Source: a virus
Taxonomy: Duplodnaviria; Caudoviricetes
Strand: one strand, 5' to 3'
Virus record (IMG/VR): IMGVR_UViG_3300021400_001346
Coordinates: 1 to 64,000 of that record
Length of the DNA stretch: 64,000 nucleotides
A model generated the notes under the pieces. The model saw only the letters and a program-made list of their open reading frames with translations, made no database searches and had not been told where the DNA came from. Shown piece by piece: positions 2,005-46,813 of the stretch. The number at the start of each line of letters is the position of its first letter. Position 1 is the first letter of the stretch. Both the position numbers and the translations under genes were made by a program.

Positions 2005-3177
2005 ATGTCTCAACATCCTTATAAAATATGTATTTACGCTATTTGTAAAAATGAAGAACAGCATATTTTTGATTGGCTATCAAGTTTAGCAGACGCAGAC
2101 TATATATGTATTTTAGATACAGGTTCCACCGATCAAACAATCAATATCATCAAAGATTTTCAAACTAATCCAACATATACCACTCCGATTATTTTGGCAC
2201 AACAAACATTCAACCCCTTCCGTTTTGATGTGGCTCGTAATGCTGCAAGACAATTAATTCCAGACGATGCCGATATTTGTTGGTGTCTAGATATAGACGA
2301 AAGGCCAGTAGTCGCCAATTGGGCAGAATTAATTCGTAATGCTTGAACAGATGATTGCAAACAACTTAATTATAAATTCGCTTTTAGTTTAAAAGAAGAT
2401 GGCACACCTGCTTCAGTAATTTGGTATGATAAAATCACTTCAAATGCTAAAAAGGAATGGTACTGAAAGAGTCCAATTCACGAACGCCGCATTTATAATG
2501 GCACCGATCCATTTAAAGCAAAGAGTTTAAATACAGAAGAGCCATTAGTTTATCACTATCAAACACCAAACCCAGGCAATCGTGACCAATACATAAATCT
2601 CATTTTAATGCGTGCAGATGAAGAACCTAATGACCCATACGGTTTACAATTCTTACTGATTGAATATACAAACCGCTGCATGTGAAGAGAAATGGTCGAT
2701 GTAATTACTAATCGTCTTATTCCAATTATCAATAGCGACACCTGTGAATTTTCCGGCATTGGTAGAGAAGAATGCCTACAAAATGCCTATCGTTATCTAG
2801 CATTGGCTTATCGCCAACTCGGAAAAAATTTTGAATGCTACATAGCAATCGATCGCAGCATCGAATCGGACCCAACTTCACTACCATCTTATCTTGTAAA
2901 GGCCGAGTACGCCCTACAAGACCAAAAGCCAGACGTAACTATTCGAACAATTTTACAAGGCTTAGAAAAAAGTTATCGTCGTTTAAACTGGCAAGAGCAT
3001 GAAGATGATTGAAGTGCTAAACCATTTATTCTTCTCACTCAAGCCTATTACATGACTAAACAATATATGCAAGCCTATTTCGCCGCGCTAACCGCAAGAG
3101 ACTTAGGTAAACCTGAAGACACCTACCTACAACACAACGTAAAGGTCTGTAAAGCCGCAATGGATCAGGAGCATTAA
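2005..3177 (+). CDS. GT2-family glycosyltransferase with TPR-like C-terminus, paralog 1, 390 aa (TGA=Trp)
   Basis: ICKNE, LDTGSTD, FRFDVARN, LDIDE, SPIHE motifs; ORF-track fragments 2005-2346 and 2692-3012 are in one frame joined by TGA; aaggag RBS. Confidence 0.88.
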
Positions 3178-3178
3178 T

Positions 3179-4219
3179 ATGGAACGTAAACATTTTATAG
3201 TTATCTACACCATTTGCAAAAATGAAAGAGCTAATTTAACTAAGTGATTGAACAGTCACAGCGGAGCAGATTTAATTGTCTTCTGTGATAGCGGTTCAAC
3301 AGATGGCACTTATGAAATACTTTGTGGTCTTCATACTCTTGAGCCAAATAAATTCCATGTTATACAATATCAAGAGCTTCCAAACTATGATATGTTTTCT
3401 TTTAGCCATGCACGTAATCAAGCATTACATAAAGCAGAAGAATTAACCCCTCAATACAATGTTTATCATAAGCCTGTTATCTTCTGTTGTTGAGATATGG
3501 ACGAATTTATTCAAACCCGTCTTGCTATACCAGCTTATGACGTTTTAGACCAAGTATGGATTAATGATAACTCTGAACAAGTTCACATTACCTTTGAAGC
3601 AAATGGTAGTACAGGCGCAGTTGCTACAAAAGTTCATAACAATTTGCCATTTGAATGGCGTTATCCTGTTCATGAGGACTTATTCCTTTACAATCATCAT
3701 CATAGTAACTATGTTAACAATCGTGTCTTTTTACCAAATGAAATTTATTATTTACACGAACAAGATTTTACTTCGTCAAATCATCGATATGGGAAGCATT
3801 TAAGATACGCAGACAAAATAGAACCTTTAAATATACATACCTTGCGTTATTTAATGTGGGAAGACTTTTTAGATAAGGATGTAAGTGCCTGCTATAAACA
3901 TGCACTCTCTTTTATTTATCTTGCTTATTCGCAAAAAGACTCAGAGTTTTATTTAAGCTATGATATTATACAACAAGCTCTATGATATTTATATAATTGC
4001 AGTTATGGTAATGAGCAATTCGCATGACTGACACAGCTTTATAATATCAGCCGACCACCTTACAATCCTGCTCTCCGCTATATTCATAAACTTTATTATC
4101 AAGCACTCATGTCTCTTAATAAAACAGATGAAGCAGAAAAGGTATTACAAGAATATAAATCCATTACTTATACGCATCACTGGTTAGACGACCCATCTCT
4201 ATATGAAAGGAACGATTAA
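3179..4219 (+). CDS. GT2-family glycosyltransferase, paralog 2, 346 aa (TGA=Trp)
   Basis: MERKHFIVIYTICKNE, CDSGSTDG, FSHARN, DMDE, YPVHE; single frame to TAA 4217-4219. Confidence 0.85.
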
Positions 4220-6962: not shown

Positions 6963-7568
6963 TTAGGCTTTAATACCAAAAGTGAAAGCTAAATCGATTG
7001 TTTTGCCGCTAACTGCAGCATCAAAAGCAGTTAATTCAGCTAAAGTAGTTGGTGCTGTAACATAGTCTAAAGTTGGTAAAGTATAAACTGCTTCATATTC
7101 GTTATCATTAGCAACAATGGCTTGTTCTGCATCTGCGATTGAACCAGCAGAGAAGCTAATTTGAGCAACAGGAAGATGATTGTCTTCAACTACTTTAAAT
7201 TCGACCTTTTCATTTTCATCATTATAATGTAAATCATTTTCAATGTGATCGATTTGACCAACAAGTTTTAAAGTAGTAACTTTACTACTAGAGATATTGT
7301 CAAGGTCTGTGCAATAAAAAATACCTTCACCGGCTTTTCTTGTAGCAGTAGCAGTAGTTGGTGCGTCAAAAACAACATAAACCTTTTCAATTTCTTGAGA
7401 ACCATTATAAACTTTTAAGTTGTTGGCTTCAATACCACAAGTAACTTTGCTTTCAACGACTGCAGAATCTTGAACTGTTTTTGTAAAAGTCCATGCTGCA
7501 AAACCAACACCTGCGAATGCTAAAGTAGCTGCGGCAGTGATGGCAGAGATTTTGTTTCTTAATTTCAT
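6963..7568 (-). CDS. Secreted protein with SipW-dependent-type signal peptide (TasA/camelysin-like position)
   Basis: MKLRNKISAITAAATLAFAGVGFA-AWTF; beta-rich body ending LAFTFGIKA; upstream ggagg RBS. Confidence 0.65.
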   Translation of the reverse strand: MKLRNKISAITAAATLAFAGVGFAAWTFTKTVQDSAVVESKVTCGIEANNLKVYNGSQEIEKVYVVFDAPTTATATRKAGEGIFYCTDLDNISSSKVTTLKLVGQIDHIENDLHYNDENEKVEFKVVEDNHLPVAQISFSAGSIADAEQAIVANDNEYEAVYTLPTLDYVTAPTTLAELTAFDAAVSGKTIDLAFTFGIKA

Positions 7569-34674: not shown

Positions 34675-35502
34675 TTATTTTCTCCTTTCCCAATTGAGTT
34701 TGATAGTTGATAAGGTTTCATTTAATATTTGACGGACACGTTCACGGGTGATGCCGAGTTCAAGTCCGATGGCTTCAAGTGTATGTTCAGAGCGCCAATC
34801 TTCTGGATCAGTAGGTTCGCCGAGTCCGAAACGCATTTTGATGATGGTTTGGACACGTGGTTTGAAGGTGCTGATGACAGACATAAGGCGGTCATGAGTT
34901 AAACTTTCTTCTGCGTAGCCGCTTGGTGTTGGTTCACTGGTATCGGCGCAAAGGTCGGACAAGGTGTCTTCACTGTCGTCGCCGAGTGGCATATCGATGC
35001 TGTAAGTGTCTGACTTCCAGCCGCGCAATGCTTCAACTTCATCTGCGGTAATACCCATGCGGGCCGCGATGGACTCGTTGGTGATGTCAACACCTTCGTT
35101 GGTGAGGTCGTTGATGGCCGCGCGATACTTTGAAAGTTTGGCGTAGATGTGGGCTGGAATACGAATATTACGACCCTTGTCGGTAATAGCTTTGGTGATG
35201 GCTTGTTTAATCCATGGAGTCGCGCAGGTGCTAAAACGATAGCCAAGGTCTGGGTTATATTTTTCTACTGCGGTGATAAGTCCGGTGTTGCCCTCCATGA
35301 TAAGGTCGAGCAAATCGAGATGTCTATTTTGATAGTTCTTCGCAATAGAAACAACTAGACGCAAGTTGCTATTGATAAGTTGTTCACGTGCGGCCGCATC
35401 GCCATTACGGTATTTATAGGCAAGGTCAAGTTCTTCCTCTGGTTTGAGAAGAGGATATTGACCGATGGTAATTAAATAATCTTTAAGTGTATTTGTGCTC
35501 AT
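34675..35502 (-). CDS. RpoD/SigA-family RNA polymerase sigma factor
   Basis: NLRLVVSIAK, DLIMEGN.GL, RFSTCATPWIKQAI, IRIP, TLEAIG...TRERVRQI. Confidence 0.95.
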   Translation of the reverse strand: MSTNTLKDYLITIGQYPLLKPEEELDLAYKYRNGDAAAREQLINSNLRLVVSIAKNYQNRHLDLLDLIMEGNTGLITAVEKYNPDLGYRFSTCATPWIKQAITKAITDKGRNIRIPAHIYAKLSKYRAAINDLTNEGVDITNESIAARMGITADEVEALRGWKSDTYSIDMPLGDDSEDTLSDLCADTSEPTPSGYAEESLTHDRLMSVISTFKPRVQTIIKMRFGLGEPTDPEDWRSEHTLEAIGLELGITRERVRQILNETLSTIKLNWERRK

Positions 35503-35711
35503 TTGCTTAAATCTCCTTTTTTAACTTTCCTTATACTAATATTATACATGATAATTTGCACTTGGTCAACAAATTTTTGCCCGGCCTGAATAACTTTTCG
35601 CGGCGAGCAACGCGCACTATCCCAATTTAATATTAGGTTTTTATTATTTATATATTAATTATATAGTAGAAGCACGGCTTCGTCAACAATTTTTGCAGCA
35701 TAATCAACAAA

Positions 35712-37400
35712 TTTCCGTCTAGCCCTGAGCAGCTGCTGAGCGCCGCGGAGTGGTAAGCCAAGTCCTGCTGCTGCCGGGAGTGAATGGCATGCCAATCGCT
35801 GCTTCTACCTAAGCCCACCCAACGTCGGGTCGGTCGGGGCAGACGGAAAAAGCCTAGTCAGTTTCGACTAGGCCAAACCCAAATAAAAAGGTCCCCTTGC
35901 AGGACCCGGTTCATAAAAAGATTGCGGCAACAATCTTACGTGGTATTGCCGTACCACGATTTACCGCTACATCTGCTGATGCTCACTTTCCGCGGCGAGA
36001 CGACCATTTCTATTTTACGCCACATGGTCGAGGAGTAGTTGGTCAATATTATTTTAGTTACTTGTTTGACTAAGCGCTTGCAACCATCGCGCTAAATCAG
36101 GGGTGCCCAATCCGCATCTGTTTTATTTTCTGTGGTACAGTCCCACGGACCATGCCGGTTTCTCTCCGGCGCCTCCGTGCCCAGGAGTCAGGGTGTCGTC
36201 AGCACATCGTTGGTCCTAGACGGTTGCGGCCGCCACAGACCATTGCCACCTGGATAGTTTTCAAGGCACTATCAATCGCCATCGGAGTTACCTTTGTCAG
36301 CGGCTCCTCAATATGACATATTCTTTCATTAGCGCTCTACCCTTACACGTCGGGTAATTAGCCGCGCTCCTCTACTACTTGCTGCGTGTCAGCTGCACCA
36401 CGTTTGGCCGAATCTCGGGACATACGTGTTACGTCTGTGCCTAACGGTAGATTACGCTCTACTGCACTGCACCGTGTTCTTCCCAGCCGAATTGGTCATG
36501 CCAATTTCTTACTCAACCTTAGTCCTGGTAGCCGAGATATACACGTCACGTTCGTGCGTCCGGCAAGTTATTGCTCTTGCTGCGCTAATTCTATACTTCA
36601 ATCGGAGTTGAACCGTCTATTCATCCTAGTCCCTTTGCTAGGCGCGCCTTTCCGCTCGGCCATTTATCATAGAATTCGGGAATTAATACTAATGTGGAGG
36701 TTGCCTCCACCCCGCATCGTCTGCGGATGCCTTAGTAGCCAATCGGAGTCGAACCGACATCTTCCTCTATCCGGTTTAGGGTGCTCTGTCCGCGGGTATT
36801 GCCCTTGAGCTATGGCACTGTATATGCTTTATAGTGCATTGGCTAGCACTTCGTTGACTTAGTGCAGTTTTGGTTGTTTAAAGGGGCGTTACTCCCTGCC
36901 AGCTAGTTTCTTGTCCACCCTCCGATCCTGTAAACCGAAGGGGCGGCGCACGACTGCCGCGTCGGAATGATTGGGGTCTATCCTACCCAGTGAGGTCTCG
37001 CTCACTTCGAGAGTCGCTTTGGCTAGATGCTATGCTCATCGTCCGGGTGTTTAGTCTCTTAAGCCCAACTACTTAACGGCTAGTTAACCGACAGCAGGCT
37101 CTTTCACGTTTTGACGTCTTAGTATTCACCCTGGTTACTGCTGCGTGGGTGTTTTGGGACCAGCCAAGGAGTTAAACCTCGGACTACCAGTCGTGCCGGC
37201 CATAGTTATCATGGGGAAGAGTTGCAGGTAATCTGCCTGCCTCTTGCTACGGGGAATTTAAGCCCGTGCTCGGCGATTTCTCTGAGGTACGTTGTCCCCG
37301 CCTTGCGGCTGCCGGTCATTGGGTTCCAACCCATGTAATAGGGTGCTCTCTTCTTTGTTTTTTAACGAGGGGTATACGCCGAGCAGGGAGATGTTCCTCA
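35712..37400 (-). ncRNA. Cluster of structured non-coding elements including tRNA-like pieces
   Basis: 1.7 kb GC-rich, no credible ORF, many hairpins, promoter at about 37421-37450. Confidence 0.55.
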
Positions 37401-37441
37401 ATTAATTTCTTACTATATTTATTATACTACTTCGTGGCGGC

Positions 37442-37928: not shown

Positions 37929-38829
37929 AATCTTTTCTCCTTTCCTTAATCCTTATATTAATATTATACACCTTTTATTCGGTCTAGTCAAGAGTTATTT
38001 TGACTAGGTAGTTAATTTTTTAAGATGTATCTTTTTACTTCTTATTAACTAACTACATATATATTATACACCTTTTATTGGGTTTGGTCAATTGCAAATC
38101 TTGGCTAAGTAGTTTGCATTTTTGCGACCGTAAGATGTTTTCTTTTCTTCACCACCTTACATATAATATTATACGCCAAAACTTCGACTATGTCCATTGT
38201 AAAAACTGGCTAGATAAGTTTGCATTTCTTGGCTTCCTGCTGCTTCTATGCAAGTTAGTCTTGACAAACCCGGCCCGAAGGGCAGACGGAAAATAAGCAC
38301 AACTCGGTAGAAAAGTCAAGCAAAAAATTGTGAAAGCGCTTTCTTGCTGCTGCTTCTCAAAAAACTCTTGACAAATCCGGATTTTTGGGGGCAGACGGAA
38401 ACAGACGGATCCGTCGGGCCAGACGGAACGCCGCGAAAAAAAGACGACCGAAGTGGTCATCTATCTTTTCTTTGGTTTCGTTCTTTTATTTTTGCCAGGC
38501 TTGAAATATGGATGCGGCAACAAGTCTTGACCGCTATAACTATTAGTATGGTAAGGACCTATTGACCCCAGCAAGTATAATAAGTTTCTTTGTGATGATT
38601 TCATATTTACTACCTCTCATGATATGCGGCATCAAGCCATAGGTTAGTCCAGTGCCAACCTTTAATCGTGTCTTCTACCACCGCGGCATCTGTAATTTCA
38701 TACCAGCCATAAGGTTCTCTGTCAGTAGACCTAATAACAACTACATCATTTGGATTTGCTTTGCGAAGTACACTCATTAATTCTTTTACAGTCATTGTGT
38801 GGTCAGTGGCGGAGACCGAGACCACGGCT

Positions 38830-39294
38830 TTATTTTTGGAAAGCATCATAACTTTCTCCCATCCGTCTACTTGGTCTGTCATGAGCAAACAACCATGCGC
38901 CCTTATTTTGAATATAAACAGTAAAGTTTTCATTGTTATAGGTAAAATCTATATAATCGCCGAAGCATTTACTGTGATTTCTTTCAGTAATAACTATACC
39001 TTTATAATTGTGGTATTTTTCCCACACTTTACTTTTTATTGAAGGAAGTTGTATAGCAATTTTTCCGTCTACTGGTAAATGGTTATAATCAAACCCTACA
39101 TTTGGTTTTAAATTACTGAAAACTCGGTCAAAACGATTTTCTCTGATGGCATCTAAACATCCGTCTAAGATATCTTCAGGAGTAACTGCCATTGTATAAG
39201 TATTAGTAACGGTTGTTTTTGTATGTTTTAGTTTTCCGTCTGCATCATAAGATGCGTATGTAATAGTTGTTTCTTGTCTTTCTAAGATTTTCAT
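38830..39294 (-). CDS. Hypothetical protein
   Basis: ORF in operon, start MKILERQ. Confidence 0.65.
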   Translation of the reverse strand: MKILERQETTITYASYDADGKLKHTKTTVTNTYTMAVTPEDILDGCLDAIRENRFDRVFSNLKPNVGFDYNHLPVDGKIAIQLPSIKSKVWEKYHNYKGIVITERNHSKCFGDYIDFTYNNENFTVYIQNKGAWLFAHDRPSRRMGESYDAFQK

Positions 39295-39313
39295 AACTTC
39301 CGTCTCCCTCCGT

Positions 39314-39595
39314 CTAGTCTTCACCTAATTCTAATTCTTCTTTTGCCATTGCAATGAATTGGTCTTTACTTAAATCTAACTTGGCATTAAGTATTTCTGA
39401 TACTTCATAAGGGCTTACACTTGAATATATTGCGCCGTCCATATCTACAAACTTATAATTCCAATAGATTTGTTCTAATATTTCAGTGTCGCTCCAATCT
39501 GGATAATTATCACGATACCAATCATATTCTTGGCGCAAATTTTCTTCGTCTAGGTCAATTGTAAACTCTTGATTAATACTAAAAGTCAATTGCAT
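39314..39595 (-). CDS. Hypothetical acidic protein
   Basis: ORF in operon. Confidence 0.65.
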   Translation of the reverse strand: MQLTFSINQEFTIDLDEENLRQEYDWYRDNYPDWSDTEILEQIYWNYKFVDMDGAIYSSVSPYEVSEILNAKLDLSKDQFIAMAKEELELGED

Positions 39596-39613
39596 ACCTT
39601 CTTCTCCTTCCGT

Positions 39614-40231
39614 CTAGGCGCGGGCTAATTCCCACGCCTTTAATAAAATTGCTAACTCAATTTTACTATCTTCAAGTGCCGTGTGTTCTTCCTTATAGTC
39701 CGTCTGACCAGTTAAGTATCTAAACACGGTTTCGGCTTTTGCTTGGCAACGAGGTCTTTTGTGTTTTGTCATAAAGCCGTTTTTTCTACAAAATGTTTTA
39801 TACTCTTCCGTCTCAGTGATATGTGGGTCGGTTAAACCTTTCCATATATCTTTAATTCCGTCTGCGGTTGGATTGGTTTTGCTGTTAAGTTTTTCGCAAG
39901 TCTTTGCAATCGCACGGGTATCAAAGCGTGAATTATAAGCATAAATTCCGTCTACGCCATATTTATTCATATCTCGTTTTAACATACGCAAGATATAAGA
40001 CCATTTGGTTTTCTTACAATATCCGTCTGCTAAACGTTGGTAATAAATTGGCAACTTGTTGGCATAATATGCGGTCTTCATGAGGTTGGCATTATCAAAG
40101 ATTTCGCTGGTGAGATAATCACGAGCCTTAATGATGTTGTCCGTCTCACTATCGTAAACGACATAGCCTAAGTCGTAAACTGATGGGTTGAATACCCCTA
40201 ATGTTTCAGTGTCAAGAACAATAATTTTCAT
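39614..40231 (-). CDS. DEDDh 3'-5' exonuclease
   Basis: LDTET, AYNSRFD, HTALED. Confidence 0.9.
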   Translation of the reverse strand: MKIIVLDTETLGVFNPSVYDLGYVVYDSETDNIIKARDYLTSEIFDNANLMKTAYYANKLPIYYQRLADGYCKKTKWSYILRMLKRDMNKYGVDGIYAYNSRFDTRAIAKTCEKLNSKTNPTADGIKDIWKGLTDPHITETEEYKTFCRKNGFMTKHKRPRCQAKAETVFRYLTGQTDYKEEHTALEDSKIELAILLKAWELARA

Positions 40232-40852
40232 GTCCGTCTGGTTCCCCTTTCTCTCTTTCTTTTTTCTTCTTTATGATAATATTATATCATGAATAGATAT
40301 TGCTGTCAATACCTATTTAAGAATTCCGTCTACCGCGAGGTGATAAGCCATTATCCGCAGAATAATATTAACGTATGTAATATTAGAGAGTTTTGTATCC
40401 TTGCACTATCAACTGCAAGTTGTGGCAACGAAATTCTTAAATAGATACTATTGTCAATACCTATTTAAGAATTCCGTCTGCCGCGGGCTGGCTAGTGCCA
40501 TTATTCTCACGTGCGCTTATGGATTTCCACCTCAGGAATAGAAAGATTTGCCATTCTTACCTATTTGCCCCTGTTAAGTCGTGGCACGGAACTCTTAAAT
40601 AAGTATTGTTATTTCCGTCTGGTGGAAGGTTTCACTTAGGTTAACCATCATTTTACTAGTAATAAGTGAAGACCTTCCGTCTACCCATTTCTCCTTGGGC
40701 GGCTTACCCTTACGTGCGCCTACTATACCCTACGTGTCCGTCTGGCGAAAAACTTGATAGACAATGAGACCATTTTCTCATTAAGATAGGTTCAGGCTAA
40801 GGGGTCCGTCTGAGCCCATCTTAATGAGAGGAAGGAATTACCTTCCGTCTCC

Positions 40853-41128
40853 CTATTCAGCGACTAATTTGTAAACGGTGTCGCTATAAGATTTATGACC
40901 GATGACTTCTTTATCATAGACAATGTCGGCAACAAACTCTCTCTTTCCGTCTGTGTTGACAATACCTTTTGTCTTTAAGGTATTAATAGAGCCTGTTTTA
41001 AACTCTTTGCCACTGACTTTTTTGATTTCTCTTAAAGTCATTCCGTCTGGGAATTGCTCCTTATTGTTTGATAAGATTTCAACGAATGATTTTTGAGTGT
41101 CGTTCATAACCCATTTTCTGTCTGCCAT
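40853..41128 (-). CDS. Small winged-helix protein (paralog family)
   Basis: GMTLREIKKVSGKEFKTG...KGIV...VYKL. Confidence 0.75.
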   Translation of the reverse strand: MADRKWVMNDTQKSFVEILSNNKEQFPDGMTLREIKKVSGKEFKTGSINTLKTKGIVNTDGKREFVADIVYDKEVIGHKSYSDTVYKLVAE

Positions 41129-41163
41129 AGTTATTTCTCCTTTCCTTAACTTTCTACTATATA

Positions 41164-41620
41164 ATTATAGCATACTTGAAGCAATCGTTCAAGGGTTTAT
41201 TTCAGTTTTCCGTCTGCCGTTTTTCCTTTTTATAAGTGGAACTCTTTAACTTTCTTACCTTAATATTATATCATAATATTTAAGGCTTTGCAAGAACTAT
41301 TTTTAACTTTCCGTCTGCGAACTTTTGCTCGGCTTACGATTACTAGGTTAATTAATTCTTACTACTATATTATATCATATTCTCATATGATATTCAAGCA
41401 CTAATTTTAAGTTTCCGTCTGCGCCGTTCCTTTCAACCAGCGCCAACTCAACTTTCTTCTACCTTAATATTATATCATAATATTTAAGGCTTGTAAAGAG
41501 ATAATTTTATCTTTCCGTCTACCCCAAACTTATTTGAGGCACGGCTTACTTATCTCTTGTATGTAAATATTATATCATATTTACATATAAGAAACAAGTA
41601 GTTTCTACTCATTTCCGTCT
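41164..41620 (-). promoter_or_regulatory. Five tandem sigma-A-type promoters at about 101-bp period
   Basis: TG-N-TATAAT at 41164, 41265, 41369, 41469, 41569, each 17 nt from a TTG/TTT -35 box, each with AGACGG upstream. Confidence 0.85.
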
Positions 41621-41937
41621 GAAGGTCCGCTCACGCTAACTCTACGATTTAATGTAGTCAACACCTCATAGAATTGACCTGCGACCAATTTATTCCATTT
41701 TCCGCCTGGGTTATCAATTGTGGCTTCTTCTTGAAACACAACCTTTCCGTCTGCATTTTGTCTGCCATATCTAATGTTATATTGTATAGACTTATAGTCA
41801 TCATCTGCAATTATGGTTGTGCTATCAATACAAACATAGGTTCCGTCTAGTGGCGCATATTCTTCACGCATAATGGCATTTAATTCTTTTTCTAACTTTT
41901 TTATTTGTCCGTCTGTGATTTTAATTTTGTTATTCAT
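41605..41937 (-). CDS. Hypothetical protein
   Basis: Own promoter and RBS. Confidence 0.65.
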   Translation of the reverse strand: MNNKIKITDGQIKKLEKELNAIMREEYAPLDGTYVCIDSTTIIADDDYKSIQYNIRYGRQNADGKVVFQEEATIDNPGGKWNKLVAGQFYEVLTTLNRRVSVSGPSDGNE

Positions 41938-42046
41938 AACTTTTTCCCCTTTCAATTTTTTCTTACCTATAATATTATATCATGCCTACTACGGCTTTGC
42001 AATACCCCAATTCATTCTTCCGTCTCTAAGACGGAAGGCTTAGGGC

Positions 42047-42517
42047 TCAACCTTGGAGCACCTTACCTTCGCTTCCGTCTACATCGGCATTTAATACTGT
42101 TGCAAGGATTGAGGTGTGAGGGTAAATCTTAATTGCGGTTCTTCCTCCGTCTGCCCATTGTTTGCAATTAACTCCATAGTCATCGAGTAAAATGCCTGTT
42201 TTAGTTTTTGCAAAGTCGCTCTTGTTTTGTCCATTGCGCATAATAATTACTCTACGCATAGGCAATTCAGGAAGGTATTTTTTAATCCGTCTGCGCTTAT
42301 CTTTATCGGCTTGTTTGTTTGGCGAGGCTGATAAAATACGAACGCTATAACCTAACCCAATTAAGGCTTTAATTCCGTCTAAGTGTCCTTGAATTGGTGG
42401 AAGATTTGCAAAGAAACCTTTTTCCGTCTCAAAACGATTTCTCCATCCGTCTGCGCTATAGAAATCGGCAATAACTCCGTCCATATCACAATAGATAAAC
42501 TTTTTTGTCTTTTTCAT
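42047..42517 (-). CDS. HAD-family 5'(3')-deoxyribonucleotidase-like protein
   Basis: DMDGVIADF, ILSA, K, LLDD. Confidence 0.85.
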   Translation of the reverse strand: MKKTKKFIYCDMDGVIADFYSADGWRNRFETEKGFFANLPPIQGHLDGIKALIGLGYSVRILSASPNKQADKDKRRRIKKYLPELPMRRVIIMRNGQNKSDFAKTKTGILLDDYGVNCKQWADGGRTAIKIYPHTSILATVLNADVDGSEGKVLQG

Positions 42518-42705
42518 AGTGTTTCCCCTTTCTATCTGATATAATTATATCATGCTTACATCTGCTTGTCAACCCGTCTGCCTGATATAATTATGCAGTA
42601 GTTAGGAATGTTATGGAATGCTTAGAGGAGGTTCACCCCTAACTACTCTATAATTATATCATAGTGGCGGTGGCTTGTCAATGCCACCAACCACCTTTCC
42701 GTCTG

Positions 42706-42930
42706 CTAATATTCAACTCCAAGTTGATTACAAAGCCTTCTAATCATTTGCGACCTTGTTTCGAGTTTTCTAACAACCTGTCCGTCTGGCAAAGTCTTCA
42801 TATAGATTTGCTTTTGACTGCAAGCACTATGCCGTTTTCCGTCTGCACTTTTCTCTAGTAATGATACGGTTGTCCATCCGTCTCTATCAACGACCTTATA
42901 CTTTTTAACTTTTGGTTCTTTTGTTTTCAT
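42706..42930 (-). CDS. Small basic hypothetical protein
   Basis: Own promoter and agggg RBS. Confidence 0.6.
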   Translation of the reverse strand: MKTKEPKVKKYKVVDRDGWTTVSLLEKSADGKRHSACSQKQIYMKTLPDGQVVRKLETRSQMIRRLCNQLGVEY

Positions 42931-43165
42931 ACCCCTTAATTCCTTTCTAGTAATATTATATCATACTTTTTGTGGCTTGTAAATAGCCTATTTTATTTTT
43001 CCGTCTGCCCTATTGTCTTAAAGCAATCCAAACATAGAGTTGTTCGCTCTCTTTTTGTTCCGTCTCATCCGCCTTTCCGTCTGCGACCTTTTGCTTTAAT
43101 TCTTGTAAGCGTTGTTCTAATTCTTCCATACCCCTTAACTCCTTTTCTAATAATATTATATCATA

Positions 43166-43603
43166 TCAATATACTAATTGCAATAGTTTATCTTTTAAAT
43201 CCGTCTGGATTTTTTTCGCACATACTTTTATTTTACGGCAATTTAAATTATTATAATATTGCATATCTTTTTCAAAATTTTGTATACAATCCATTAAGGC
43301 TTTTAAATTTCCGTCCGTTTTATTACGTGCCCATCTAAACATTAAGCGGGCTATCCATTCTTCTTTACTTCCGTCTGGAATAATTAGAATAAAATTTACT
43401 TTTAATTTCATAAGTGTTTCAATAACACATGGGTGGGCTGATAAGAAAACATCTTTTCCGTCTGCTTCTATTTTGCGTGCAGTATAAATATAATTAACTT
43501 GCCAATTTTTTACTTTTTTAAAAGTATTACTATCTAAATCAATACCGTCCGTCTCAGCGCACAATGTTGTTTTACCTACGCCACTATATCCACAAAATAG
43601 CAT
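43166..43603 (-). CDS. P-loop nucleotide-kinase-like protein
   Basis: GYSGVGKTT, IDLDS. Confidence 0.75.
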   Translation of the reverse strand: MLFCGYSGVGKTTLCAETDGIDLDSNTFKKVKNWQVNYIYTARKIEADGKDVFLSAHPCVIETLMKLKVNFILIIPDGSKEEWIARLMFRWARNKTDGNLKALMDCIQNFEKDMQYYNNLNCRKIKVCAKKIQTDLKDKLLQLVY

Positions 43604-43638
43604 ATTTTACCCCTTTCGCCCTTTCTCACTAGTTAGGT

Positions 43639-44124
43639 TTAAAACCTAACTAGTGTTTCTAATACTTTACTAACGCCCTTAATTTTTCCGTTTTTAGCAA
43701 AGTTGTAATATTTAGTATTTGAACGATAGACACCATAAGGGTCGACCATAATGAGTTCTTTATACTCGCCGTTTTCATAGTCTTGCAATTGTTTTTCACT
43801 AATACTTGCGTATGCGACCGAGTTCGTGTATTTAATTTCATAGTCGTGATTATTAAGTTTTAAATCTACACGACCAGCACTATATTTACTAGCACTTTTT
43901 TGATTTTTAAGTAATAATTTAATCAAGCATTCAACGACCGAGCCACGATTTAAAACTTTGCCATTTCTAGCGACCTCGCACGTAATTTGCGCTTTATTGT
44001 CTAGCATATTGCATAATGAAATTATAGCATCATTGCAAGTGTGATTTTTTGCGTTTGCTTTTGTGTCGTTGATATACATATCACGGACGGAACGAATAGA
44101 TAAAGTTTGAATTGTGTTTTCCAT
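43639..44124 (-). CDS. Hypothetical protein, possible PD-(D/E)XK fold
   Basis: GSVVE...VDL...YEIKY. Confidence 0.5.
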   Translation of the reverse strand: MENTIQTLSIRSVRDMYINDTKANAKNHTCNDAIISLCNMLDNKAQITCEVARNGKVLNRGSVVECLIKLLLKNQKSASKYSAGRVDLKLNNHDYEIKYTNSVAYASISEKQLQDYENGEYKELIMVDPYGVYRSNTKYYNFAKNGKIKGVSKVLETLVRF

Positions 44125-44434
44125 AAAATAACCCCTTAATTTATTCAACTTTTTAATAAGTCTTTTAACTTATTACACTTATAATTATAAACTTTTATTT
44201 TTTGTTGTCAATACTTTTTTTAAAAGTTTTTTAATTTTTTTTGTAATTCGTTTTTTAACTTATTACACTTATAATTATAAAGATATATTTTATAGTGTCA
44301 ATTGCAAAAACGATTTTAATATATTGCAAAAATTATTATGTGGGGGGGGGTAGTATTAATTTTTTTCACATTTTTTCAAAAATTCCGGCCCACCTCTGGT
44401 AGAAAATTTATATGCTCCATTTTTTGATGACTGC

Positions 44435-45397
44435 CTACTTCTTATTCAACCCAATCTCCGTACACCCGTACCAGTCGATCCACCATCTTTCTCTTTCATT
44501 CAACAGTCTTCTATCATTCACCCTCTCAACTACTTCTCAGTAGAAATCTTCAATCAGATGGTCCTCATACAACTTCTCACCTCCACTACTCTCCACTCCT
44601 ATCATCTTTTTAGCGTGTTGGTACCATCTCTCCTTAATATTAACTGCCTGCCCAACATAGCAAACCCTAACATCATCTTTCAACACCAATCTATAAATGC
44701 CGCAACAACCGTCGGCTTCTTCTCTCTTCACCAATCGTTGCATGGCTGGCATTCAGACCTTTCTCCATTCGATGGCCGCCAATTCACTTTTCAAATCCCC
44801 GTACTCTTCCTCGATCGTCCTAATCAGTTTCACTAACTTCATGTCTCTCCCACTCACTTCAAGCGGCCAACCATTTTCGCCACCTTCTTCCTTTCAGCCG
44901 CGCAAGACCGCTAACCTATTCTCTGTCTGTAGCCTCTCCAATTCTTCCACCAGTCTTTGAACTTCTTCTTTGCGGCGACCCAACACGCTGTCGACTTGAG
45001 TCAATTCTTCCTTGGCATGCACCAAATCGGCCGCCACCTTCTCCATTTCAGCTTGGCGTTCATTGAGAGCCGCGAGTTGTTGTCCAGCATGGGCGCTCAA
45101 GTCTTCCTGTTGACCCTTCAGAATATTCGCCCTCTCTTCTCAATAATTCACCTGGTTTTGAAGTTCATCAATGCGGCCACATTTGGCTAATAGAGCCTCA
45201 TTTGACGCTGTTACCTTCTTTAACTCCTCAGCCGCCTTATCTCGTTCCTCAATAGCCTTAGTTAACTTAACTACCAATTGCCTAACTTCATCGGCATGGT
45301 CGTCACTTTTATCCTTCTTATATTTAATTAAAACGGTTGTAACAATTAACGCCGCGATTAATACCATCGCCACGCTTACGCATATTCCTATTACCAT
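44435..45397 (-). CDS. TM-anchored coiled-coil protein with C-terminal GIY-YIG domain, 320 aa (TGA=Trp)
   Basis: Three ORF-track pieces in one frame joined by TGA; GIYRL...YVGQAVNIKERW..H...LNERERWWI. Confidence 0.8.
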
Positions 45398-45444
45398 ATT
45401 ATCTCCTTTTTCCTATTATAATAAAAAAAGTTGGCCCGCGCCAA

Positions 45445-45669
45445 CTATTTTTCCTCATCGAAGCCTAAACTTTCCGCATCGTCTCCTTCCAGAGACGCCA
45501 TGATGCGGGCTCAAGTAGCCTCATCGAGTTCGATATCATCAATCAGTTTAGTTTCGGCATCGAATAAATGCACGAAATCAACTGTTTCATCTAATTGTTC
45601 ATCTGTTAAAAATTTTTCGGCATCTAATTCTACACCCGTAGGTCCGCCATTCTTATTTTCAATTTTCAT
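45445..45669 (-). CDS. Small acidic protein, 74 aa (TGA=Trp)
   Basis: MKIENKNGG... with gagg RBS, one TGA, TAG stop. Confidence 0.6.
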
Positions 45670-45814
45670 ATAATACCTCTTGTTAATTTACTTTATAAAA
45701 GTTTCTATTAATTATCAAAAATACATTTTCAGGCTACCATTACTATGAAAAAGCATTTTTGAATTTTTCAGTTTTATTGCATTATACTGATAGAAAGGAG
45801 ATATTAGACATCCT

Positions 45815-46813
45815 ATGATAAAATATAACTATGGTACTTGCCCTAAATGCGGCCGCCATAACGTAAAGCTAGTTTATTCTAATAACCCATTAAGCGGCAC
45901 TACGATTTGTTTCAACTGTGTAAAAGATAACCTCGATTATCAAAACTTATCACATGCCGATTTTTTCTGCCGCACTTATAACATTCCATTCGATCCAGAA
46001 CTCTGGTTACAATATTGCGACGAAGTAGGCAACGACGTTTTTGAAGAATACACTTCTCTTCAACTTGAGTCTCAAGAAGACCACCAAAACCTTTATTATG
46101 GTTCGGCAACCGCCGACCTTTGGAACAAAGTTAATAAAGAATGGGAAAAATGCCGTTCTTTCTCTGAAATATTGCGCAAACTTCCAACCATCAAAGACTC
46201 TTATATGGAACGTGGCCATTTAAAATGGGGCGAGCAATATACTTTTGAAGAACTTATTAAACTCGATTCTATTTACACCCGCACTTTGCGTGCCAATAAC
46301 ATTACTAATCCGCTTCAACGTGAAGCCGTTAAGACGCTTTGCAAACTGCAAATCGAAATGGACGAAGCTATCCGCGCGAAAGACGCCAAGGCCATCCGTG
46401 ACTTTTCTAATGCATGGTCAACTTTTGCTAAACAAGCGGACCTTGAAACCATGATTAATGAAACCAAGACTGATGACATCACTACCGTCGCCGAATTATA
46501 CGACTACATGGAACGTCAAGGTTTCCAATTCAAATACTTTGATGGATTTGATCGTGATGAGGTTGACCGCACCATTCGAGATATCCAAGATGCCAACCGT
46601 CAACTCATTCTCGAATCAACTGGTCTTCAATCACTACTCGAGGAAATGCGCGATCAACGTAACCGCACCCTCGAAGAAGAAAAGACCAACCAAGTCATTA
46701 AGGAGGAAACTCCATTGGAAGACCTTCTCAACTTATCACCTGCCGACGTCGACATTGATACAGAAGACGATTCCGAAGCCATTGAAGAAGATTTTTCTGA
46801 AGGAACAAATTAA
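45815..46813 (+). CDS. Zn-finger protein upstream of TerL (possible terminase small subunit)
   Basis: CPKC...CFNC N-terminus; position. Confidence 0.6.
   Translation: MIKYNYGTCPKCGRHNVKLVYSNNPLSGTTICFNCVKDNLDYQNLSHADFFCRTYNIPFDPELWLQYCDEVGNDVFEEYTSLQLESQEDHQNLYYGSATADLWNKVNKEWEKCRSFSEILRKLPTIKDSYMERGHLKWGEQYTFEELIKLDSIYTRTLRANNITNPLQREAVKTLCKLQIEMDEAIRAKDAKAIRDFSNAWSTFAKQADLETMINETKTDDITTVAELYDYMERQGFQFKYFDGFDRDEVDRTIRDIQDANRQLILESTGLQSLLEEMRDQRNRTLEEEKTNQVIKEETPLEDLLNLSPADVDIDTEDDSEAIEEDFSEGTN

Follow-up and report, generated by a model that had tools for sequence, protein, structure and literature searches.

We analysed a 64,000-nucleotide stretch of DNA (the window), the first 64 kb of the 115,739-bp virus record IMGVR_UViG_3300021400_001346, which derives from an uncultured rumen or gut phage. 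The phage carries 28 transfer RNA (tRNA) genes, an anaerobic ribonucleotide reductase, tail genes and, at 34675–35502, a sigma-70-family gene of its own. A leftward gene run extends from ∼45.7 kb down to 7 kb. Within this run, the region 38.8–44.3 kb consists of small early-type genes encoding a P-loop protein, a 5′-deoxyribonucleotidase-like protein (42047–42517), a DnaQ-like exonuclease (39614–40231) and several small proteins without known relatives. This early block contains a dense array of one short word, AGACGGA when read on the sense (minus) strand, and the placement of this word is the subject of the present analysis.

The hexamer CCGTCT occurs 69 times in the window, compared with 13 expected. 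The longer form TCCGTCT has 54 plus-strand copies in the genome, 49 of them within 38862–43548 (∼1 per 96 bp). Read on the minus strand, they form an array spanning 38862–43554 in which all 49 AGACGGA copies are co-oriented, 31 of them within open reading frames (ORFs) and 18 intergenic. The full consensus, g-C-AGACGGA-A-A, is longer than the hexamer, and the base preceding AGACGG is almost never adenine. The spacing of the copies is far more even than random, with few gaps below 30 bp (coefficient of variation 0.42–0.63; 0.51 in the window). An Rfam search of 34–46 kb gave no match, a near-identity search of a phage collection with 38000–46000 found nothing, and a literature search for the motif word returned primer-type matches only.

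We scanned for promoters of the TTGACA/TATAAT type, with a TATAAT −10 box being required. Our own scan and a tool scan gave nine minus-strand promoters between 41164 and 43206 in which exactly 17 nt separate AGACGG from the −35 hexamer. Five of these are tandem units preceding the gene for a 91-residue winged-helix protein: 41569–41620 (weak −35 TTGTTT, with a TG-extended −10 and a palindrome around the −10), 41469–41520 (TTTACA), 41369–41420 (TTGAAT), 41265–41316 (TTGCAA) and, last before the gene, 41164–41215 (TTGAAC). The other four are at 41974–42034 (TTGCAA), 42653–42704 (TTGACA), 42955–43006 (TTTACA) and 43155–43206 (TTGCAA). In the first of these four, the motif at 42020–42025 pairs with a flipped copy at 42029–42034 to give a 9-bp hairpin after the nucleotidase gene. 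A further cassette at 40281–40331 on the minus strand (TATAAT 40281–40286, TTGACA 40304–40309, motif 40326–40331) has a 16-nt gap and drives the exonuclease gene. The first-pass annotation had listed the nine promoters, with CCGTCT starting 18 positions beyond the end of each −35 box (that is, a 17-nt gap), as well as the shorter spacing at 40309/40326, and every one of these coordinates proved correct.

Two minus-strand promoters depart from this arrangement. A consensus promoter at 42544–42579 has a variant CCCGTCT only 1 nt from its −35 box (at 42572). The promoter at 35658–35720 has a TTGACG −35 box, no TG and a single motif 28 nt upstream. For this site (35686/35715) the +29 offset given in the first-pass annotation is right; its explanation as a spacing variant with one helical turn more was not borne out, this being a lone case on a promoter of another class. 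In the one relative checked (L009), the sigma-gene promoter has no motif within 80 nt upstream. The 35658–35720 promoter therefore probably lies outside the locked class. The 520 bp separating the winged-helix gene from the exonuclease promoter (40332–40852) have no credible ORF and contain six motif copies; a second 'AGACGGAATTCTTAAATAGGTATTGACA' cassette, without a −10 box, is found there at 40441–40483.

Given the local motif density, the binomial probability of at least 9 of 11 promoters sharing one fixed offset is 1e-16, and in 200,000 randomisations the highest count was 3. A register of this kind might nonetheless have no function if the motif merely rode in a promoter cassette that was spread by duplication. 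Cassettes 41293 and 41497 (named by the ends of their −35 boxes) are indeed clearly paralogous, with an identity of 0.63 in their variable segments. However, all remaining pairs have identities of 0.19–0.54, the background level, and most of the cassettes are not recent duplicates. Duplication without function also sits badly with the invariance of the motif among orthologous promoters whose neighbouring sequences vary, with the finding of the same lock in 12 phage loci and with the presence and turnover of the motif in coding sequence (both below). We consider such an origin extremely improbable.

Related loci, designated here by L numbers, were reached through block proteins in IMG/VR and JGI metagenomes. 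A metagenome scan with a single block protein gave six loci, and a pattern scan of species genomes, which demanded TTG and TGnTATAAT, added five array-bearing phage contigs, on seven loci, that had been binned in bacterial metagenome-assembled genomes. The same word is present in the phage of the window and at least eleven relatives. Phages with a nucleotidase 45–54% identical to that of the window have the same word in co-oriented arrays of 35–86 copies. For 12 loci, the word was located 15–19 nt upstream of the −35 box, always in the same orientation, at 120 of the 135 promoter-like sites inside arrays, and at none of the 43 outside them. The distance histogram in related phages, which had been proposed as a check on the fixed spacing, was sharply peaked, with 34 sites having a gap of 16 nt, 66 a gap of 17 nt and 14 a gap of 18 nt; the preferred gap in L014 is 18 nt. 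Activator-dependent promoters likewise have their factor site upstream of the −35 box at a set distance and in a set orientation.

The lock was examined further by aligning, across five phages, the final pair of orthologous cassettes preceding the winged-helix gene. Three elements are invariant: GCAGACGGAAA, cTTG and ATGnTATAAT. The 17-nt gap is variable in sequence, with its length shifting by at most one base, while the stretch from the upstream −10 box to the word has indels. Because the gap length is fixed while the upstream distance varies, the word is locked to its downstream promoter. Motif conservation in the orthologous promoters equals that of the −10 box. Individual cassette types also recur, a 'AGACGGAATTCTTAAATAGGTA' cassette of the 40281–40331 type being found again in L009, L024 and L025, and promoters of the TTGTTT type in L009, L015, L016, L018, L024 and L025.

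Counting from a −10 hexamer at −12 to −7, we place the motif at about −58 to −51, with its centre near −55 rather than near −60 as first suggested. A UP element was rejected as the identity of the motif: the positions −46 to −40 are A-rich, yet −58 to −52 are occupied by the G+C-rich word AGACGG.

The promoters with the motif differ from those without it in more than the word. A 17-nt spacer is found in 55 of 57 motif promoters and TATAAT in all (as the scan required). The TG-extended −10 is present in 52 of the 57, compared with 8 of 25 motif-less promoters (Fisher P = 9e-8). Their −35 boxes, often TTGTTT, TTGAAT or TTGCAA, are weaker than those of the motif-less promoters of the same phages, which have TTGAC(A/C/T) types and mostly no TG. 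The two promoters furthest upstream in the block (44211 and 44301) have no motif, a point to set against the immediate-early timing proposed in the first-pass annotation; the promoters downstream of the array all lack it as well. Judged from these sequence features, the motif promoters are a distinct class with a weak −35, a TG-extended −10 and a 17-nt spacer, in agreement with the first-pass annotation, and they have the elements of sigma-70/sigma-A extended −10 promoters (TTGnnn, 17 ± 1 spacer, TGn, TATAAT). The weak −35 boxes suggest activation, and a weak −35 box with a TG-extended −10 is what factor-dependent promoters have; the −10 box is nevertheless consensus, and the full consensus promoters of L014 speak against strict dependence.

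The TTGTTT-type promoters also contain an almost perfect palindrome with the −10 box at its centre (e.g. cttatatgtaaatatgaTATAATatttacatacaag). It was seen at 41569–41600 in the window, at 7238, 7594 and 7710 in L015 and at 7371 and 8240 in L016, and a dimeric repressor could use it as its operator.

The motif might be read by a transcription factor of the host or by the host polymerase itself, with the phage borrowing the signal for immediate-early expression. This would suit early promoters, which have to work ahead of phage proteins, and the location of the motif at a distal UP-element or activator contact position. In addition, the phages that share the word have early proteins that are only 30–64% identical, as if what they had in common were a host factor. 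However, when 185,579 bacterial and archaeal species genomes were scanned for motif plus promoter, multiple such promoters were found only on phage contigs. The hits consisted of 7 mis-binned phage arrays and 87 single matches. The single matches showed no 17-nt peak (16 nt: 20; 17 nt: 33; 18 nt: 34) and usually had A or G before AGACGG, where the phage sites have C or T. In these species genomes, which may not include the host, and with a pattern that demanded TTG and TGnTATAAT, no host regulon was evident. The array contigs (L030, L042/L118, L087, L107 and L119) came from bins assigned to Clostridium sp., Parabacteroides goldsteinii, Gemmiger formicilis, Ruminococcus sp. and one other bacterium. 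These labels are too inconsistent to point to a host, and errors of binning probably account for them. The motif is also G+C-rich, unlike the sites of the polymerase alpha C-terminal domain (alpha-CTD), and close relatives use different words. A host-read element is thus unlikely in our view.

A second lock was found at terminators. Every array ends in a cluster of 3–6 flipped copies. In the window, the array end on the minus strand (38284–38462) consists of an intrinsic terminator at 38462–38442 followed by four flipped copies at 38421–38427, 38403–38409, 38393–38399 and 38284–38290. Ten flipped clusters, from 8 of the 10 loci examined, start 13–27 nt (mostly 18–21) after the first T of a T-run, and the terminators preceding flipped clusters are good intrinsic hairpins. 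A run of at least six T starting 10–30 nt upstream is found at 17 of 65 flipped copies (26%), compared with 8 of 621 forward copies (1.3%). The GGAA end of the word consequently faces the polymerase both at promoters and at terminators, whereas inside genes it is the other end that is met. The flipped clusters in the window (38284–38462), in L014 (11040–11370) and in L015 (12020–12110) are followed by conserved boxes, GAAGCAGCAGCAGC and TTTGTCAAG.

Roadblocked polymerases halt roughly 14–18 bp ahead of the obstacle. With this halting distance, a polymerase with its active site in the U-tract would have its leading edge against a protein bound to the flipped copies. The placement of the flipped copies, taken by itself, is that expected of a polar roadblock. 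In vitro, a terminated polymerase slides on and is arrested by DNA-bound proteins (PMC11364550). A further use of the flipped copies, in confining or recycling polymerases within the block, is speculative.

The flipped copies also bear on whether the word is read as RNA. T4 RegB uses GGAG in early messenger RNA, and AGACGGA might similarly be read in the early transcripts, for cleavage, binding or messenger RNA stability, with the promoter positions being secondary. The intragenic copies would fit such a signal, all 31 in the window being on the sense strand and none flipped, as would the excess of forward over flipped copies across the 12 loci (621 versus 65) and the even spacing, as though there were one copy per ∼100 nt of RNA. 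An RNA-level signal gives no account, however, of the ±1-nt lock to the next −35 box while the distance to the upstream promoter varies. The flipped copies are best regarded as DNA elements because they are placed beyond terminators, and a transcript would there read UCCGUCU. In L013, moreover, variant sites abut the −35 box at 20–21-bp spacing (below). We therefore think it quite unlikely that the word acts primarily in RNA.

To see how the word is accommodated in genes, we considered the 31 ORF copies in translation. All three reading frames are used, and the word encodes x-Asp-Gly in 22 copies, (Glu/Gln)-Thr-(Asp/Glu) in 7 and Arg-Arg in 2. The exonuclease homologue of the motif-free L011 is 74% identical and has other residues at all six motif positions. 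Between the exonucleases of the window and L009, lost motif sites are offset by new ones close by. The nucleotidases of motif phages contain word-encoding ETE and ADG tripeptides that are missing from three word-free phages, and in some motif phages the protein gains an extra N-terminal ADG. Because all three frames are used, word-free relatives differ at those codons and lost sites are replaced nearby, the comparison indicates that selection acts on the DNA word itself, which is written into protein sequence and turns over.

Two relatives have different words at the same landmarks. In L013 (IMGVR_UViG_3300028886_000057) the word is GCGGTCGGGT, and 2–3 copies, 20–21 bp apart, abut the −35 boxes of six promoters. 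In L011 (IMGVR_UViG_3300031992_000074) it is TTCCGTCGGGT, with forward copies in terminator hairpins and genes and flipped copies in tandem clusters 30 bp apart after terminators. As far as these sequences go, this fits a reader that has diverged alongside its site.

The fixed spacing points to a factor that is bound to DNA beside RNA polymerase, and because the double lock to promoters and terminators is otherwise hard to explain, the word would be read on DNA by a factor that handles the polymerase. On balance, we favour the view that AGACGGA (gCAGACGGAAA) is an asymmetric double-stranded DNA site for one protein, probably phage-encoded, that acts on the host sigma-A RNA polymerase in a manner where direction matters. 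One copy at about −58 to −51 of the early promoters would allow the bound factor to contact the polymerase and set its activity, and the 16–18-nt A-rich gap before the usually weak −35 box could house the alpha-CTDs. At a flipped site 13–27 nt past the start of the T-run, the bound protein would stall the oncoming polymerase in the U-tract, as a polar roadblock. Within genes, the permissive orientation alone would be allowed. On sequence alone, the factor could activate, repress, insulate or autoregulate. The spacing, its conservation, the orientation rules and the selection on the DNA word are observed, whereas a protein reader, its identity and its effect on the polymerase are inferred from them.

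Several observations weigh against this interpretation. The suggestion that AGACGG is an activator or polymerase-contact site is supported, by the fixed spacing and the promoter class, as far as a polymerase-adjacent DNA-bound factor is concerned, but the motif is not promoter-specific: ∼40 of the 50 copies are found at other places, including 31 within ORFs, and the promoter role would be one part of a broader system coded by orientation. In L014 the motif is 18 nt upstream of a consensus TTGACA combined with a TG-extended −10 and TATAAT, and such consensus promoters should need no activator. Immediate expression needs firing that is independent of the phage, so that a phage activator cannot be strictly required, and a TG-extended consensus −10 may be enough alone. 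The model does not itself explain the ∼40 intragenic copies at an even ∼90-bp spacing, and their full co-orientation would also fit an RNA-level signal. There was no helical phasing between copies at periods of 9–12 bp. Finally, the recognition helix of the winged-helix protein (below) is nearly unchanged in L011 despite the differing flank of the word; the evidence for covariation between recognition helix and word is thin, coming from very few genomes, with no clear co-variation.

Two proteins of the block were considered as candidate readers. The first is the 91-residue winged-helix protein, encoded on the minus strand at 40853–41128 and fed by the five tandem cassettes. It belongs to no Pfam family. 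Its predicted fold (predicted local distance difference test (pLDDT) 83) has three helices and a long β-hairpin, and the closest solved folds are all winged-helix DNA binders, although the matches are weak (best Foldseek E-value 0.03); a winged-helix profile search against the sequences of solved structures gave no meaningful match. The protein has two paralogues in its own genome, and its metagenomic relatives fall into at least 73 clusters. In the window, L014, L015, L016 and L024, the gene is located behind four to six tandem promoter units ∼100 bp apart. No ORF lies between these units, which span 41164–41620 in the window, 7594–8073 in L015, 8240–8595 in L016, 4643–5000 in L024 and 7951–8636 in L014. 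L011 keeps the tandem promoters before the gene (2919–3436) though it is free of the word. The variant-motif phage G003 has only a distant winged-helix paralogue, whose recognition helix differs.

The second candidate is the 161-residue product of the first block gene (43639–44124, minus strand), which is behind the motif-less promoters 44211 and 44301. Its model (pLDDT 89.6) and the invariant residues E65, D87 and E96-x-K98 make it a probable PD-(D/E)xK, restriction-endonuclease-like protein. The top fold matches are all restriction endonucleases or resolvases, the best having a VIA Z of 5.4, which is below a safe level. In four relatives a diverged, fast-evolving copy is found at the upstream edge of the early block. 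From the genes present, a phage-encoded reader of the motif is plausible.

At 44537–44752, upstream of the array, there is a 71-residue ORF with a GIY-YIG-like N-terminus (GIYRL...YVGQA) and an early stop, and this ORF is kept upstream of the arrays in L009, L014, L015 and L016. The region 35900–37420 is G+C-rich (46–49%) and ORF-free, has no Rfam match and is flanked by promoters and terminators.

The arrangement at the promoters can be compared with known upstream factor sites. SoxS/MarA/Rob, and especially SoxS at the 'class III' fpr promoter, are alike in having a fixed distance and orientation of an asymmetric site relative to the −35 box, a non-optimal −35 and a consensus −10. Monomeric SoxS binds a flipped site 15 bp upstream of the non-optimal −35, where two alpha-CTDs bridge to sigma region 4 (PMC9638938). 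The spacer is thus about 15 bp, compared with 16–18 here, and the box is 20 bp, compared with a 9–11-bp word here; SoxS is an activator, whereas for the present factor activation is putative. Pfam detected no AraC-family protein among ten block proteins. In contrast to the SoxS type, the word here also carpets coding DNA and, flipped, follows terminators. The T4 MotA box is likewise a phage-specific word defining a promoter class with a good −10 and a poor −35. However, the MotA box takes the place of the −35, with its centre at about −30, and depends on AsiA, whereas here the −35 is kept and the word is 17 nt further upstream.

CAP class I promoters and the Ogr-dependent late promoters of phage P2 similarly have a fixed upstream factor site, with the factor thought to touch alpha. 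The P2 late-promoter site is centred near −55, matching the centre of the motif, while the CAP site is centred further upstream. For CAP the value is −61.5 (PMC9638938). The CAP and P2 sites differ from the present word in being dyad-symmetric, bound by dimers or zinc-finger proteins, and found once per promoter and nowhere else.

The terminator lock resembles the Tus-Ter, RTP-Ter and TTF-I/Reb1 systems, in which the orientation of an asymmetric site decides between pass and stop. TTF-I also provides an example of the same protein being used at RNA polymerase I terminators and just upstream of the promoter. These proteins act on replisomes or on RNA polymerase I, whereas the barrier proposed here is deduced from geometry alone. 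We know of no bacterial or phage system that uses ∼50 permissive intragenic copies.

As a gene block, the region is similar to the host-takeover module of SPO1 and the pre-early region of T5, which are also compact blocks of small early genes, each with strong host-type promoters (PMC6873191). The likeness to T5 extends to a 5′-deoxyribonucleotidase-like gene, a genome of ∼116 kb and many tRNAs; the nucleotidase-like and DnaQ-like genes together with the 116-kb size and the 28 tRNAs are reminiscent of a T5-like pre-early region. To our knowledge, no single word in SPO1 or T5 is tied to both promoters and terminators and also runs through genes. Chi for AddAB/RecBCD and KOPS for FtsK are polar signals of another kind, directed at DNA-processing enzymes.

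The array might accordingly be a polar signal for a DNA translocase or nuclease, either Chi- or KOPS-like or a self-mark against the phage's own first-gene nuclease, in a two-step injection of the T5 type. This would suit the strict polarity, the density of the single block, the flip in orientation at its end and the T5-like pre-early functions in the block, namely the 5′-deoxyribonucleotidase-like gene and the nuclease-like first gene. The first-step, early DNA of T5 has an array of protein-binding boxes (10.1101/866236). Those boxes, however, are host DnaA boxes limited to a non-coding stretch, unlike the array described here. Nor would a translocase or nuclease signal have to keep register with promoters and terminators, whereas here both registers are exact to the nucleotide. 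In a relative flagged as having terminal repeats, the contig break falls within the array, consistent with an arbitrary assembly cut. We judge a polar signal of this type to be very unlikely.

Returning to the favoured view of a DNA site for a polymerase-acting protein, the promoter lock describes a phage-specific upstream factor site, which is itself a known kind of element; together with the terminator lock and the one-directional carpet of intragenic copies it may be more. More tentatively, and with considerable doubt, we suggest that the early block could be a 'one-way street' written in a single 9–11-bp word and read by one small polymerase-contacting phage protein. The word 17 nt upstream of the −35 box would recruit or hold the polymerase and, flipped after the terminator, would stop it. 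The intragenic copies at ∼90-bp intervals would let sense transcription pass while blocking antisense polymerases, replication forks and nucleases entering from the ends; alternatively, they would retain and recycle polymerases inside the block. If true, this would be a module-wide, orientation-coded cis-language, of which we know no described counterpart in phages or bacteria.

The analysis provides a class of promoters with a recognisable sequence signature (gCAGACGGAAA, 16–18 nt, a weak −35 and a TG-extended −10) for large uncultured rumen and gut phages. In these phages, which otherwise come without regulatory information, the class marks the early block and its boundaries. The orientation locks at promoters and terminators, together with the re-coded proteins, point to a single factor coordinating initiation, termination and the direction of travel across 5–7 kb. 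Such a factor would be a compact, portable tool, and would show how a phage can insulate its takeover genes.

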